From: Heptranchias perlo
Lineage: Eukaryota
Assembly: GCF_035084215.1 (NCBI RefSeq)
Contig: NC_090326.1
Location: forward strand, 24,862,001 to 24,926,000
Direction: 5' to 3'
DNA: 64,000 nucleotides
Positions 1 through 63,826 of the stretch are shown here, one piece after another. How positions within the stretch are numbered: the stretch's first letter is position 1; each line of letters starts with the position of its first letter. Made by a program: the position numbers and the translations under genes. The notes under the pieces are model-generated. The model had not been told where the DNA came from. It did not search any database and saw only the letters and a list, made by a program, of their open reading frames with translations.

Positions 1-753
1 AATACCGGTGGCCGTTTGTTCAGTGGATGCACTCCAACCTTCTGGAACTTACTGCCCACTTCTCTCCATCTTGCCACCTCCCTCCCTCTTTTCAAGAACA
101 TCCTCAAAGCCCTTTTCTTCAATTGTGGCCTGATTCTTCCCCAATTCTCTACATTTTTGCCCCTGCTCAGCATGCATTGTCTTGTCCTCTTCATAATTTA
201 GAAGACTTTGAGATATCCTTATGCACATTAGGAGCGCTTTGGAAATTCAAGTTGTTTGTTTATCAATGAAATGTGTCACTAGTGTTTCCGTGCAGTAGAT
301 GCAGTTTCACTAATAAGTAATATACGTGGCTGTATTACTCATTGTTAATTAGATATTTCTTATAGGTTTGCAGTGTTTATGCCACAATCCTTTAATCCTT
401 CAGGATTAAATGCTCAAAGAGTTAAATTACGATGACAGGATGGCATAGTACCCAGAAGTAATTTCAAAACTATAATCTTTGGGCTTAGATGACAACCATA
501 AAACCTTCAAAGTTTTGCTTTGTTAATTGTGTTGTTGTCTGAATCCCTTTGGTTGCATTGTTAAAGAAAGAACTGGCATTTCTATAGCTGCTTTCACAAC
601 CTCAGGACGTCTCAAATCACTTCACAGCCAATTAATTAACTTTGAATTGTAATGGCCATTGTTACGTATACATTGTTACCAGGTGATTACTCATTGTTAT
701 TCTAAACAATTTTACAACACCAAGTTATAGTCCAACAATTTTATTTTTAATCC

Positions 754-788
754 CACAAGCTTTCGGGGGCTTTCCCCTTCCTCAGGCG
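754..788 (-). ncRNA. Minimal hammerhead ribozyme motif (left PLE arm)
   Basis: Exact reverse complement of 4235-4269. Confidence 0.8.
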
Positions 789-1011
789 GTGTGGAAATGA
801 CATTTTCGAATCCTTCGCATTTTAAGATCACAGAACAATGCCTGGTGATTACTGCCCGTTGCCAAGGCAATCACAGTGAGCAGACAGAAAGGTGTCACCT
901 AAAAAGGCCACCGAATATACAAACCCCCCAAAAAAAGAGAGAGAGAGAGATAAGGAAGACAGTCAATGACCCGTTATATTAAAAACAGATAACATTTGTT
1001 CACTGGTGGGG

Positions 1012-2553
1012 TTACGTGTAGCGTGACATGAACCCAAGATCCCGGTTGAGGCCGTCCTCATGGGTGCGGAACTTGGCTATCAATTTCTGCTCGACGATTT
1101 TGCGTTGTCGTGTGTCTCGAAGGCCGCCTTGGAGTATGCTTACCCGAAGGTCGGTGGCTGAATGTCCATGACTGCTGAAGTGTTCCCCGACAGGGAGGGA
1201 ACCCTCCTGTTTGGCGATTGTTGCGCGGTGTCCGTTCATCCGTTGTCGCAGCGTCTGCATGGTCTCGCCAATGTACCATGCTCTGGGGCATCCTTTCCTG
1301 CAACGTATGAGGTAGACAACGTTGGCCGAGTCACAGGAGTATGAACCGTGCACCTGGTGGGTGGTGTCCTCTCGTGTGATGGTGGTATCTGTGTCGATGA
1401 TCTGGCATGTTTTGCAGAGGTTACCGTGGCAGGGTTGTGTGGTGTCGTGGACGCTGTTCTCCTGAAGGCTGGGTAATTTGCTGCGAACGATGGTTTGTTT
1501 GAGGTTGGGTGGCTGTTCAAAGGCGAGTAGTGGAGGTGTGGGGATGGCCATAGCGAGGTGTTCGTCATCATTGATGACATGTTGAAGGCTGCGGAGAACA
1601 TGGCGTAGTTTCTCCGCTCCGGGGAAGTACTGGACGACGAAGGGTACTCTGTTGGTTGCGTCCCGTGTTAGTCTTCTGAGGAGGTCTACGCGATTTTTCG
1701 CTGTGGCCCGTCGGAACTGTCGATCGATGAGTCGAGCATCATATCCCGTTCTTACTAGGGCGTCTTTCAGCGTCTGTAGGTGTCCATCGCGTTCCTCCTC
1801 GTCTGAGCAGACCCTGTGTATTCGCAGGGCCTGTCCATAGGGGATGGCCTCTTTGACGTGGTTAGGGTGGAAGCTGGAAAAGTGGAGCATCGTGAGATTG
1901 TCCGTGGGCTTGCGGTAGAGTGAGGTGCTGAGGTGCCCGTCTTTGATGGAGATTCGTGTGTCCAAGAAAGAAACTGATTCTGAGGAGTAGTCCATGGTGA
2001 GCTTGATGGTGGGATGGAACTTGTTGATGTTATCGTGTAGTCTCTTTAGTGATTCCTCACCATGGGTCCATAGAAAGAAAATGTCGTCGATGTATCTGGT
2101 GTATAGTGTTGGTTGGAGGTCCTGTGCAGTGAAGAAGTCCTGCTCGAACTTGTGCATGAAAATGTTGGCGTATTGGGGTGCGAATTTGGTCCCCATGGCT
2201 GTTCCGTGTGTTTGGGTAAAGAACTGGTTATTGATGGTGAAGACATTGTGATCCAGGATGAAGCGGATGAGTTGTAGGATGGCGTCTGGAGATTGGCTGT
2301 TGTTGGTGTTGAGTATTGATGCTGTCGCAGCGATGCCGTCATCGTGGGGGATACTTGTGTAGAGTGCCGAGACGTCCATCGTGGTGAGAAGTGTTCCTGG
2401 TTCAACTGGTCCGTGGGTACTGAGTTTTTGTAGAAAGTCTGTAGTGTCGCGACAGAAGCTGGGGGTTCCCTGTACGATGGGTTTCAGGATGCCCTCAACG
2501 TATCCAGAGAGGTTCTCACACAGGGTTCCATTGCCTGATACGATAGGACGTCC
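1012..2553 (-). CDS. PLE (Neptune-like) RT + Cys linker + GIY-YIG endonuclease ORF, 5'-truncated, uninterrupted (left arm)
   Basis: RT motifs GRPIVS, MDVSALYTSIP, QTHGTAMG and RYIDDIF; linker CHGNLCKTC; endonuclease NVVYLIRC..WYIGET..RMNGH. The Cys-rich linker is characteristic of Neptune-group PLEs. Confidence 0.9.
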   Translation of the reverse strand, partial: GRPIVSGNGTLCENLSGYVEGILKPIVQGTPSFCRDTTDFLQKLSTHGPVEPGTLLTTMDVSALYTSIPHDDGIAATASILNTNNSQSPDAILQLIRFILDHNVFTINNQFFTQTHGTAMGTKFAPQYANIFMHKFEQDFFTAQDLQPTLYTRYIDDIFFLWTHGEESLKRLHDNINKFHPTIKLTMDYSSESVSFLDTRISIKDGHLSTSLYRKPTDNLTMLHFSSFHPNHVKEAIPYGQALRIHRVCSDEEERDGHLQTLKDALVRTGYDARLIDRQFRRATAKNRVDLLRRLTRDATNRVPFVVQYFPGAEKLRHVLRSLQHVINDDEHLAMAIPTPPLLAFEQPPNLKQTIVRSKLPSLQENSVHDTTQPCHGNLCKTCQIIDTDTTITREDTTHQVHGSYSCDSANVVYLIRCRKGCPRAWYIGETMQTLRQRMNGHRATIAKQEGSLPVGEHFSSHGHSATDLRVSILQGGLRDTRQRKIVEQKLIAKFRTHEDGLNRDLGFMSRYT

Positions 2554-2569
2554 GGTTCCATTGCCTGAT

Positions 2570-4003
2570 ACTACAGACTTTCTACAAAAACTCAGTACCC
2601 ACGGACCTGTTGAACCAGGAACACTTCTCACCACGATGGACGTCTCGGCACTCTACACCAGTATCCCCCACGATGACGGCATCGCTGCGACAGCATCAAT
2701 ACTCAACACCAACAACAGCCAATCTCCAGACGCCATCCTACAACTCATCCGCTTCATCCTGGATCACAATGTCTTCACCTTCGATAACCAGTTCTTTACC
2801 CAAACACACGGAACAGCCATGGGGACCAAATTCGCACCCCAATACGCCAACATTTTCATGCACAAGTTCGAGCAGGACTTCTTCACTGCACAGGACCTCC
2901 AACCAACACTATACACCAGATACATCGACGACATTTTCTTTCTATGGACCCATGGTGAGGAATCACTAAAGAGACTACACGATAACATCAACAAGTTCCA
3001 TCCCACCATCAAGCTCACCATGGACTACTCCTCAGAATCAGTTTCTTTCTTGGACACACGAATCTCCATCAAAGACGGGCACCTCAGCACCTCACTCTAC
3101 CGCAAGCCCACGGACAATCTCACAATGCTCCACTTTTCCAGCTTCCACCCTAACCACGTCAAAGAGGCCATCCCCTATGGACAGGCCCTGCGAATACACA
3201 GGGTCTGCTCAGACGAGGAGGAACGTGATGGACACTTACAGACGCTGAAAGACGCCCTAGTAAGAACGGGATATGATGCTCGACTCATCGATCGACAGTT
3301 CCGACGGGCCACAGCGAAAAATCGCGTAGACCTCCTCAGAAGACTAACACGGGACGCAACCAACAGAGTACCCTTTGTCGTCCAGTACTTCCCCGGAGCG
3401 GAGAAACTACGCCATGTTCTCCGCAGCCTTCAACATGTCATCAATGATGACGAACACCTCGCTATGGCCATCCCCACACCTCCACTACTCGCCTTCAAAC
3501 AGCCACCCAACCTCAAACAAACCATCGTTCGCAGCAAATTACCCAGCCTTCAGGAGAACAGCGTCCACGACACCACACAACCCTGCCACGGTAACCTCTG
3601 CAAGACATGCCAGATCATCGACACAGATACCACCATCACACGAGAGGACACCACCCACCAGGTGCACGGTTCATACTCCTGTGACTCGGCCAACGTTGTC
3701 TACCTCATACGTTGCAGGAAAGGATGCCCCAGAGCATGGTACATTGGCGAGACCATGCAGACGCTGCGACAACGGATGAACGGACACCGCGCAACAATCG
3801 CCAAACAGGAGGGTTCTCTTCCTGTCGGGGAACACTTCAGCAGTCATGGACATTCAGCCACCGACCTTCGGGTAAGCATACTCCAAGGCGGCCTTCGAGA
3901 CACACGACAACGCAAAATCGTCGAGCAGAAATTGATAGCCAAGTTCCGCACCCATGAGGACGGCCTCAACCGGGATCTTGGGTTCATGTCACACTACACG
4001 TAA
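2570..4003 (+). CDS. PLE (Neptune-like) RT + GIY-YIG ORF, 5'-truncated, uninterrupted (right arm)
   Basis: Same motifs as the left arm. It differs at only 4 residues (FTFDN/FTINN, FKQ/FEQ, SHY/SRY). The genuine element frame begins near TTDFLQKL. Confidence 0.9.
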   Translation, partial: TTDFLQKLSTHGPVEPGTLLTTMDVSALYTSIPHDDGIAATASILNTNNSQSPDAILQLIRFILDHNVFTFDNQFFTQTHGTAMGTKFAPQYANIFMHKFEQDFFTAQDLQPTLYTRYIDDIFFLWTHGEESLKRLHDNINKFHPTIKLTMDYSSESVSFLDTRISIKDGHLSTSLYRKPTDNLTMLHFSSFHPNHVKEAIPYGQALRIHRVCSDEEERDGHLQTLKDALVRTGYDARLIDRQFRRATAKNRVDLLRRLTRDATNRVPFVVQYFPGAEKLRHVLRSLQHVINDDEHLAMAIPTPPLLAFKQPPNLKQTIVRSKLPSLQENSVHDTTQPCHGNLCKTCQIIDTDTTITREDTTHQVHGSYSCDSANVVYLIRCRKGCPRAWYIGETMQTLRQRMNGHRATIAKQEGSLPVGEHFSSHGHSATDLRVSILQGGLRDTRQRKIVEQKLIAKFRTHEDGLNRDLGFMSHYT

Positions 4004-4234
4004 CCCCACCAGTGAACAAATGTTATCTGTTTTTAATATAACGGGTCATTGACTGTCTTCCTTATCTCTCTCTCTCTCTCTCTCTCTTTTTTTGGGGGGT
4101 TTGTATATTCGGTGGCCTTTTTAGGTGACACCTTTCTGTCTGCTCACTGTGATTGCCTTGGCAACGGGCAGTAATCACCAGGCATTGTTCTGTGATCTTA
4201 AAATGCGAAGGATTCGAAAATGTCATTTCCACAC

Positions 4235-4269
4235 CGCCTGAGGAAGGGGAAAGCCCCCGAAAGCTTGTG
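4235..4269 (+). ncRNA. Minimal type I hammerhead ribozyme motif in PLE 3' region
   Basis: CGC-CUGAGGA-A-GGGG(AAAGC)CCCC-GAAA-GCUU-GUG: conserved core, stem II, short stem I, and a palindromic AAGCUU in place of stem III as in PLE minimal hammerheads. Confidence 0.8.
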
Positions 4270-4380
4270 GGATTAAAAATAAAATTGTTTACAATTGTCA
4301 ACCCCAGTCCATCACCGGCATCTCCACATCATTGTTATTCTAGTCATTCTTTCCCAGGACCTAAAGTTGTGAAACTACTC

Positions 4381-11814: not shown

Positions 11815-12925
11815 AGGGAGCAGGGCAGTGGGATTAATTTTGAATTGATACAGGGCTATGGGGAGAGAACAGGCCAATGGATTAGGTTTAGATTGATACA
11901 GGGCTATGGGGAGAGAGTGAGGCAGTATGATTCGTCTTGGATTGATACAAGGCCATGGGAAGAGAGCAGGGCATTGGGATTCATTTTGAATTGATACATG
12001 GTTATGGCCAGAGGCTGGGGCAATGGGATTAGTTTTGGACCAGTACAGGGCTATGAGGAGATAGTGGAGGAGTGGGATTAGTTTTGGACTGGTTCAAGGC
12101 TATGGGGAAAGAGCAGGGCAGTGGGATTAGTTTTGGATTGATACAGGGCTATGGGGAGAGAGAGGGCAGTGGGATTAGTTTTGGATTGATACAGGGCTAT
12201 GGGGAGAGAGTAGGGCAGTGGATTAGGTTTAGATTGATACAGGGCTATGGAGATAGAGAGAGTGGGGCAGCGGGATTAGTTTGGGATTGATACAGGGCTA
12301 TAGGGAGAGAGTGGGGCAGTGGGATTAGTTTGGGATTGATATAGGGCTATAGGGAGAGAGTGGGGCAGTGGGATAAGTTTGGGATTGATACAGGTCTATG
12401 GGGAGAGAGTGGGGCCGTGGGATTATTTTGGGATTGATACAGGGCTATAGGGAGAGAATGGGGCAGTGGGATACGTTTGGGATTGATACAGGGCTACGGG
12501 GAGAGAGTGGGGCAGTGGGATTAGTTTGGGATTGATACAGGGTTATAGGGAGAGAATGGGGCAGTGGGATTAGTTTGGGATTGATACAGGGCTACGGGGG
12601 AGAGAGTGGGGCAGTGGGATTAGTTTGGGATTGATACAGGGTTATAGGGAGAGAATGGGGCGGTGGGATTAGTTTGGGATTGATACAGGGCTACGGGGAG
12701 AGAGTGGGGCAGTGGGATTAGTTTGGGATTGATACAGGGTTATAGGGAGAGAATGGGGCGGTGGGATTAGTTTGGGATTGATATGGGGCAGTGGGATTAG
12801 TTTGGGATTGATACAGGGCTATAGGGAGAGAGTGGGGCAATGGGATTAGTTTGGGATTGCTCCAGCAAAGAGCCAGCTCAGATGCGATGGGCCAAATGGC
12901 CGTCTCATGTGCTGTGAACCTCTGG
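11815..12925 (+). repeat. 49-bp G-rich minisatellite (~21 units) ending in a CR1 3' tail
   Basis: Unit GGGATTAGTTTGGGATTGATACAGGGCTAT(A/G)GGGAGAGAGTGGGGCAGT with starts at 12272, 12321 and 12370. It runs into gctccagcaaagagccagc..gggccaaatggcc. Confidence 0.9.
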
Positions 12926-61980: not shown

Positions 61981-63826
61981 ATGGAGCAGCACAGGGGCAA
62001 GGCTGCTCCAAGATTCAGTGTCGCCTCACTTGAGGTGCTGCTGGCCGGAGTGAGGGGGAGGAGGGAACTATTTTACCCAGGAGGAAGTGCCCTGCCTCTT
62101 CCACTAAGAAGGCCTCGCTCAAGGTGGCAGAGGAGATCACCAGCAGCAGCAATATCTCCCGCACCTGGGTCCAGTGCAGGCAGCGATTCAATGACCTAAC
62201 TAGGTCAGTAAAAGTGAGTACACTTACTCATTCTCCTACATTCAGTGTTGCACATCACCAACTCCCCCAAACACTCATTCTGCACTGCCAAGACTACTCC
62301 ATCACATCACTCCTCACACCCACTTAAGGCTCATCCTCAACTTACCTGCACTTCCTCACCTCCCCATTAGTCACCCCACCACTACCACTCACCTGATCAA
62401 TGTGATGTCCCTGTCTCATACTCACCCTCTGATGCACCTCTTCCATGGTCAGCCTCACCCAAACCAATGCATTCATCGGCTGACCATTTCGCCATCACTC
62501 ACTCACATGTCTGTACTTTTTCCCCTTGTAGGAGAAGAAAGCGCAAAATGCTCACGAGAGGGCGAGAACTGGAGGGGGGTCTCCACAAATATTGGTCCTC
62601 ACAGAGGCAGAGGAGGAGGCCCTGGAGATCAGCCGCACCCTCGAGTGTCTGTCAGTTGGGGACGCCGAGACTGGCACCCCACAAACATCTGGTGACACAA
62701 CTTTAACATTCATCACACACAACATGAATTGATCACCGGCATCTCCACATCACCGGCATCTCCACATCTCAACATCACCGGCATCTCCACATCATAACAT
62801 GAATTGATGTTAAGATTGATTGGCATGTTGAACACCTCAGTATGCTCATCGCAACATGACACATCTGTGATGATGCTTAATATTGCCCTCTGTTCTTCTA
62901 CAGGCCCTTCAACGACTGCAGTGATGGGAGAGGGCGATTCCTCAGAGTACCTGCCGGCCTCTGAGAGCGCATGGTCATCCACCAGCGCAGATACTCACAC
63001 TCGGTGGGCCCTAGTAGTCAGTTAATTGGGTTGGCACCTGGTGAGCACAAGCAGACACTGGTGGCAGGGGCAACTGTGGAGAGTCCATGTCGGTGGGAGC
63101 ACTCTTCTCCAGGCTCTGCTCAGCTGGACACAGATGCTGAATCCTGGGGGCCATCCTTTTAAAGGAGAATGATCCAGGGACAGCAGTATATTTGAGAGGT
63201 ACTGGAACAGGTGCCATGTACACTCTCCACAATAGCGCAGAGGAGCCCACCTCCTACATTAGTGGAATAGTGGTCCAGGTAAGTGCGGGAATGTCTGTGA
63301 TGGAGGAAAGGCTAGCCTCCATTGAGCTTCAAGCACGGCTCACAAATGAGTCCATTCAGGCCCTGACAACGGCCGTTCGGGCTCAGGGTGAACAACATTA
63401 TGCCGCTGTAAACAGGCTGACAGAAACTTTACAACTAGGCTTCCAAGACTTCACACATGTCCTCCAAACTGTCGTCCAGCAGAGTGGTAGGAGTGATCTG
63501 GGCCTGGCCCAGGGGAGGGATGATGGCGAAAGGGGACATGGAAGTGGGGACACCACTCAAAGCCCTCCCATGTCTCACCCGTTGCCCCCCTCTCAACCAG
63601 TACCCGCAATGCTGCCTCCTCTACAGGTGGCTGAGTCTGCCCCTGCACAAGTGCAGGTGGAGCAGTCTTTGGAGGGGCCCTAACGGGCTCCAAAACCCAG
63701 AGGCGTAGGCCGAAAGCATCTAAGCAGTCAGGGCATGAACATGAGCAACCTGCCACTACCTCTGCTGCAGCCACAAGGGTTGCGCCACGTAAAAGTAGTA
63801 AGAAGAGAAAGGCTAAGGTTTTGTGA
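61981..63826 (+). pseudogene. Decayed 3-exon Harbinger Myb/SANT-like DNA-binding gene (exons ~61981-62213, 62532-62691, 62904-63826)
   Basis: MEQHRGKAAPRFSVASLEVLL..., RTWVQCRQRFNDLTR|gtgagt, ag|EKKAQNAHERARTGGG..LTEAEEEALEI, a coiled-coil-like segment and a basic C-terminus (KSSKKRKAKVL*). Contains frameshifts and stops. Confidence 0.8.
62734..62795 (+). mobile_element. Micro-insertion of tandem PLE 3'-terminal units
   Basis: (CACCGGCATCTCCACAT)x2 + CTCAACAT + CACCGGCATCTCCACATCAT. The unit is identical to the PLE terminus at 4313-4332. TSD AACATGAATTGAT at 62721-62733 and 62796-62808. Confidence 0.85.

Follow-up and report, generated by a model that had tools for sequence, protein, structure and literature searches.

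A micro-insertion made of the repeated end of a Penelope-like element behaves like TPRT slippage with joint patching rather than telomerase-type addition

How does a retroelement come to leave behind nothing but its own end, several times in a row? The question is raised by a 62-bp insert in the window (the whole stretch of 64,000 nucleotides that was analysed), which lies on the plus strand between two perfect 13-bp copies of its target. The 13-mer AACATGAATTGAT is identical at 62721-62733 and 62796-62808 and has no further copy within the window, and the insert parses as 17+17+8+17+3, in the order CACCGGCATCTCCACAT, CACCGGCATCTCCACAT, CTCAACAT, CACCGGCATCTCCACAT and CAT. The first two units (62734-62750 and 62751-62767) match exactly the 17-mer that closes a head-to-head insertion of a Penelope-like element (PLE) some distance away in the window; the 17-mer has four exact copies in all (4313, 62734, 62751 and 62776) and occurs in none of 100 shuffles. 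The 8-mer (62768-62775), one base off the element's CTCCACAT, fits a slip of 8 nt that links the second CATC of the element end with the third, one mismatch aside, and could alternatively be a short copy from the insert's right flank. The third unit with its CAT (62776-62795) ends at the family's usual end CATCAT and is the piece copied first, adjoining the primer. The last 23 nt (62773-62795) match perfectly the end of the head-to-head insertion at 4310-4332 (plus strand), which reads CATC-ACCGG-CATC-TCCA-CATC-AT, where CATC occurs three times at spacings of 9 and 8 nt, with CATCA at 4310-4314 and 4327-4331. All three joints of the insert (17, 17 and 8) connect CATC to CATC, the 8-mer again with its mismatch; the final AT of the left target copy also fits the element, giving a 2-nt microhomology at the 5' joint, and the insert itself has no inverted arm. 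The first-pass annotation had described a 62-bp insert of the repeated PLE end with a perfect 13-bp TSD and a pair of CATCA words bracketing the unit, and both descriptions hold. The insert is a PLE micro-insertion with a TSD typical of the family.

The insert sits in a multi-copy repeat of PIF/Harbinger type, apparently inside an intron (GT..AG, 62692-62903, plus strand) of a putative Myb/SANT-like gene, as judged from sequence and translations; matches of this gene to Myb_DNA-bind_4/5 are weak and below cut-off, and a DDE_Tnp_4 match (E=6.9e-21) lies directly past the window end. All 29 paralogues of this repeat that were fetched, from 40 scored out of 5,767 candidates, carry the 13-mer once and lack the 17-mer. 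A 30th (L237, G000:C2:25.717 Mb), 0.79 Mb away and with the same flank variant as the window, is also empty, and the 125 bp that surround the site are the same in it and in the window. The expectation that other host copies hold the 13-mer once is thus borne out in 30/30, which rules out that the host repeat carried the units beforehand. Given these empty paralogues and the family-typical TSD, we read the insert as one that arrived de novo at a cut of endonuclease type. Short-read contigs from runs X1-X3, which stem from a single sample (perhaps that used for the assembly), span the insert with zero differences and so speak against an assembly artefact. Run X5, under another organism label and of small share, shows no depth over the insert, an absence that carries no weight either way. 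We also considered whether the right flank had been edited through an inverted repeat, since it reads GTTAAGATTG and not the majority GTTAACAATG and so pairs better with the 8-mer; this is ruled out because the first change is present in 90 copies and one empty copy has both. Between window 62700-62889 and L237 there are many differences on either side of the 125-bp identical part, and one variant is found only in these two copies; the identity may possibly reflect a patch of gene conversion.

What kind of element supplied the end? The head-to-head insertion (705-4328) is a 5'-truncated PLE of the same family, with arms 98.7% alike and a 14-bp TSD at 691-704 and 4329-4342. It encodes an RT (profile match to RVT_1, E=5.1e-10) together with a C-terminal GIY-YIG domain (E=2e-4; 22.1 bits, slightly below the cut-off of 22.6) joined by a CX4CX2C linker. 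A motif in the pLTR at about 4237-4267, noticed by eye, we take to be hammerhead core-like; an Rfam search on L111 returned no hammerhead match and only a hairpin match below threshold. A PDB search with the truncated ORF produced no match to TERT and RT matches that were all weak (E at or above 0.2). The linker, CHGNLCKTC, has the CX2-5CxxC form that, in the accessible part of PMC8557442, defines Neptune/Nematis PLEs between RT and EN, and it would place the source family with them.

The repeated unit was first taken to be the extreme 3' sequence of the element. It is the usual genomic end of insertions: the sequence upstream is normal in 30/30 single copies that were sampled, of which 25 continue CA and 19 CAT. 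It is not the end of the RNA, in which the site is internal; copies L129, L213 and L222 run past it into the open frame MATIDTTNCRLT, so that a probable start codon overlaps with the usual end. None of the 30 sampled copies ends in tandem, and with 3 dimers among 50,358 copies this disposes of the concern that active elements natively carry repeated ends. Family ends show an inverted pLTR and a one-sided tail, and inverted arms begin about 35 nt further upstream than the usual end. In 20 of 30 short insertions of the family (L115-L142; compare window 691-4342) the arrangement is head-to-head, and each arm has its own fixed start, the two lying about 35 nt from one another. TSDs measure 10-15 bp in 23/30 short-arm insertions, and fixed two-site arms with TSDs of this size are as twin priming at both cut ends would give.

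The genome (G000, 3.25 Gb) holds 50,358 copies of the 17-mer, with three exact dimers among them and no 17-mer array of more than two units. The search for dimers and trimers that the first-pass annotation had proposed therefore went against a 17-nt ladder, and the 17 register accounts for only 3/16 reiterated loci and 3/50,358 ends. A gapped search gave 84 matches that reduce to 17 loci, 16 of them PLE-derived and one unrelated, with 11 matches on C284, C402 and C1392 counted as one event (4/11 fetched, with the same flanks). L153 and L154 were taken as one locus. A 37-mer array at C18:42.3 Mb and L229 share the motif, have no PLE context and were dropped before counting; calls of the automatic TSD finder at L114, L128, L129, L133, L136, L139, L163, L206, L207 and L210 were judged spurious and left uncounted. 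The periods of the end segment at reiterated loci are 8, 12, 14, 17, 19, 20, 22, 30, 35, 37, 38 and 40. A search for the 8 register returned seven matches (the window, four long-arm ends, the micro-insertion L228 and one unrelated), so that this slip is present at five PLE loci besides the window. Inserts as small as the window's have siblings: single units of 24 bp (L122) and 22 bp (L140), each with a 12-bp TSD, and inserts built solely of reiterated pieces at L098 (34 bp), L228 (21 bp), L217 and L212. A close analogue, L217, has three copies of an internal pLTR 12-mer (used below as a control) in a 61-bp insert with a 12-bp TSD.

Is the end, then, a preferred template? As a control we used an internal pLTR 12-mer about 50 nt upstream of the end, with 113,058 copies compared to 56,587 for the end 12-mer and with no CATCA-type bracket. 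The control has 221 near-tandem matches in the genome, with periods of 12-42. Over the span covered by the first 100 of these, at least 72 control loci compare with 10 end loci, so that per copy the control is reiterated 3.6-fold more (p=2e-5); for long arms alone the excess is an estimated 2.6-fold or so. The end is accordingly not a preferred template. Of the 72 listed control loci 35 were examined, and in 26 of these the duplicated stretch lies no more than about 35 nt away from the 5' truncation joint, compared with 6/41 single copies (p=1.4e-7; the 41-copy baseline was drawn from one stretch of one contig), and 25/35 have a clean TSD of 11-16 bp. In the window, at 4261-4300, the pLTR in the sense arm of the head-to-head insertion lacks about 30 bp that separate a pair of AAAATTG words, and the same pair gives a recurrent 29-bp duplication in the control set, which indicates that slips run in both directions.

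Our counts suggest that the repeats are made while the element inserts. Nine of the 16 reiterated PLE loci are short-arm insertions, yet very short sense arms make up only about 1,400 of 56,587 ends, a figure obtained by dividing 559 pattern matches by 0.40; since it includes some unrelated matches, the enrichment is understated. With the window left out, eight short-arm loci stand against seven others (odds ratio 45, p=8e-10), and when the three loci with repeated units including the TSD are left out as well, five against seven (odds ratio 28, p=6e-6). The exact 17-mer dimer behaves in the same way, occurring at 1/~49,700 long-arm ends with the full CATCA bracket and at 2/~620 short ones (p=5e-4, or p=0.025 without the window), where class sizes for short and long arms are estimates from pattern counts. 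With an enrichment of about 45-fold in abortive, very short insertions, the repeats were likely made during insertion, at the nick, the support being statistical. Random later slippage is disfavoured because the duplications follow the 5' joint. Perfect tandem joints mostly show microhomology of 1-8 nt, and the short microhomology together with the 28- to 45-fold enrichment is what template slippage in TPRT, where duplication occurs during insertion, would leave. Of the earlier proposal that a PLE RT reiterates its terminal template at a nick, the nick is likely and a dedicated terminal-template activity finds no support.

How could a row of ends arise at such a nick? We propose, with a probability of about one half, that the window insert is the end segment written three and a half times in a row by a stalled cDNA that re-primed on the RNA. 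The endonuclease of the element would have made a 13-bp staggered cut in AT-rich DNA, the TSD recording the stagger. Reverse transcription would then have been primed at the usual internal start CATCAT, at the pLTR/ORF junction where the genomic end lies, internal initiation being suggested by the read-through copies and by in vitro work on an anole PLE. Since the cDNA is presumably not processive, its end GATG would dissociate and pair again with CAUC at the start, and synthesis would jump by 8, 17 and 17 nt; such registers fit the three CATC copies and the coupling to abortive insertion is seen statistically, while the enzyme and the template are presumed. Re-annealing on microhomologies of 4-5 bases would take place while insertion is under way, after which the cDNA end may have been joined to the other target strand through the 2-nt AT match and filled in. 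Counting against re-priming on RNA, the 8-mer needs one extra mismatch, and the locus was read in one sample. On this reading the stutter is a mistake to which a promiscuous priming end is prone, and not a dedicated repeat-addition cycle.

The hops could also have been made during insertion on a DNA template, with one short cDNA whose top-strand end was repeatedly extended and slipped back, whether by host microhomology-mediated repair (polymerase theta, for example) or by the RT acting on DNA; we hold this as a tentative alternative. For the window insert the RNA and DNA routes yield the same letters, slip-back by a DNA polymerase on the cDNA being equivalent, and the enrichment in abortive insertions and at 5' joints is equally consistent with DNA-templated hops. 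Snap-back and template-jump joints are known in R2 and L2, according to the accessible parts of PMC11371274 and PMC2666801, and target-DNA units or patches occur in L208, L204, L100, L143 and L002/L112. In particular, units repeat target DNA at L094, L099, L102 and L208, L100 repeats part of its own joint, and at L002/L112 a snap-back copy of target plus end lies beside the 17-mer dimer. From these we conclude that DNA-templated steps take place at such joints, and for units with target DNA an RNA template is excluded because it cannot supply that sequence. On the other hand, L100 and L110 require RNA sequence that is absent from the rest of the insert. In each of them a piece of RNA-derived sequence, taken from 20-27 nt downstream of where insertions usually end, separates one end unit from the next. 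This suggests that priming took place a second time, either on RNA or on a distinct cDNA, and at these two loci (L110 being without a TSD) an RNA template and the element's RT seem favoured. Reiteration is also found at the primer-side end of long processive copies (seven loci, and four in the 8-register set), and the window units hold no certain target DNA, both of which speak against hops on DNA.

A quite different history, in which a single 20-bp micro-insertion was expanded later by replication slippage or unequal exchange, we consider unlikely. It draws on the single-unit micro-insertions, on the ATCA that brackets the unit, and on DNA-level expansion elsewhere, as in the arrays of insert plus TSD at L094 (four units), L099 and L102 and in an 80-unit array. 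It must explain, however, why some 49,700 long-arm ends with equal or better microhomology show the dimer once, and for the window it requires three separate slips (17, 8 and 17) with the TSD left unamplified. We give least credence of all to a dedicated telomerase-like addition, in which the RT of the PLE would use a bracketed template of 17 nt and translocate on it processively. It is true that in the direction of reverse transcription all three window jumps land on the same CAUC, and that two arrays have units ending at usual start sites (a 37-mer at L107 and a 36-mer at L163). Yet with three dimers in 50,358 copies, many registers, no 17-mer array above two units, a control reiterated 3.6-fold more per copy among the matches listed and no telomere addition found, the evidence lies heavily on the other side. 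The built-in CATCA realignment repeat on which the first-pass annotation had relied is not needed, and the telomerase-like template lacks support because the site is internal, registers are many, the bracket-free control is repeated more and some units contain target DNA. A weaker relation to telomerase can be imagined, although we think it improbable: the PLE enzyme would hold its RNA anchored and reset the primer end onto its own start site, a latent, weak form of the telomerase translocation step that surfaces on failed elongation and founds minisatellites whose units run up to the start sites (the 37-bp and 36-bp arrays). If this were so, PLEs would be a bench model for repeat addition arising from a common ancestor with telomerase.

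Returning to re-priming of a stalled cDNA, the behaviour is familiar from other retrotransposons. Slippage early in TPRT, explicitly likened to telomerase, is described for the L1 ORF2p on Alu RNA (PMC3415434, which also cites slippage by the I factor and R2) and for UnaL2 (PMC1636434), in the accessible parts of these papers. In those systems as here, a weakly paired nascent cDNA dissociates, re-anneals and duplicates template segments. The differences are that the element is a PLE, that the template is an internal, non-repetitive site of the RNA, and that repeats do not belong to every insertion: they are uncommon, vary widely in register and cluster in abortive insertions and at the 5' joint. 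For EN+ PLEs, what is accessible of PMC11167929, PMC8557442 and PMC3846280 describes insertions with a 30-40-bp tail and two internal start sites, and in vitro the anole PLE initiates internally at two sites (PMC11167929). Our family shares the end at the pLTR/ORF junction, a second start that lies on the inverted arm, about 35 nt upstream, the AT-rich target and the TSD, whereas reiterated insertions and micro-insertions are not described in the accessible parts of these papers; the element studied in vitro is moreover a Poseidon, while ours has the CX2-5CxxC linker of Neptune/Nematis. R2 and L2 form snap-back, extra-template and template-jump 5' junctions, as far as PMC11371274 and PMC2666801 are accessible, and there too, before the joint closes, a truncated cDNA end serves as primer for more synthesis, with itself, target DNA or a further template being copied; in the PLE, by contrast, what is added repeats the start segment in direct tandem, and the whole insert is built of it. 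Self-priming and template jumps have been proposed for PLEs in another context (PMC3846280, accessible part), and the accessible part of PMC6007223 holds nothing on slippage. No report of PLE slippage, of reiterated PLE ends or of such micro-insertions was found in a literature search that covered mainly papers outside subscription journals. The suggestion of novelty for this family is in keeping with that search; telomerase-like slippage at the start of reverse transcription has already been described for LINEs. The stutter is a known retrotransposon behaviour, rare, in a PLE family for which we found no earlier report.

The comparison with telomerase itself, and with the telomere-attached, EN-minus PLEs Athena and Coprina (PMC8557442, accessible part), rests on a related RT and on tandem copies that form when it realigns on a short repeated motif. 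Here, unlike there, an endonuclease is present, the end shows 12 periods instead of a fixed template boundary with one register, regular processive addition is absent (three dimers, no trimer, no ladder), and the sites are not chromosome-terminal. In a search that covered one orientation, in an assembly that may miss true telomeres, a single match lay beside telomeric repeats: L231 (G000:C14:57 kb), a twin-armed PLE in a short degenerate telomeric-type repeat near the contig start, which is an ordinary internal, TSD-flanked insertion. Tested in this way, the feature works like TPRT slippage with joint patching and fails as telomerase-type addition. PLE insertion is poorly known and has only lately become open to in vitro work, and these loci are its footprints in vivo: the priming end is unstable, re-primes on matches of 1-8 bases and can land as little as 21-24 bp. 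They also allow a direct test of whether telomerase's closest retroelement relative realigns on its template, and the genome-wide numbers make the stutter a rare error and not a function.

The earlier suggestion that such events seed micro-insertions and minisatellites has fared well, the micro-insertions having siblings and PLE ends being real seeds of minisatellites, although long expansion does not look like the work of an RT. At L107 (G000:C8:91.596-91.600 Mb) there are 80 units of the element's last 37 bp, a unit about as long as the distance from one start site to the other; its three variant positions occur in shuffled order, as would fit expansion as DNA after a founding duplication. 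L163 (G000:C3:15.055 Mb) has 13 units of an internal 36-bp pLTR segment whose end coincides with the second start site. L094 is made up of insert plus TSD four times over, and L099 and L102 also repeat a micro-insertion with its TSD (2-4 times overall); such repeats are a route from TSD-flanked stubs to minisatellites. The L107 array lies 0.86 Mb from the contig end. Two other repeats of the window, a 49-bp minisatellite of about 20 copies at 11823-12783 and a C/T-rich compound repeat at 32731-33277, are unrelated to the insert. At L153/L154 (C2:75.057 Mb) a 36-bp internal pLTR unit is repeated in both arms of one insertion. Finally, at L103-L106 (C284, C402 and C1392) a PLE insertion with an 8+12+12 stutter has been amplified with its flanks as part of a larger repeat of at least 11 copies, one of which has one unit fewer.
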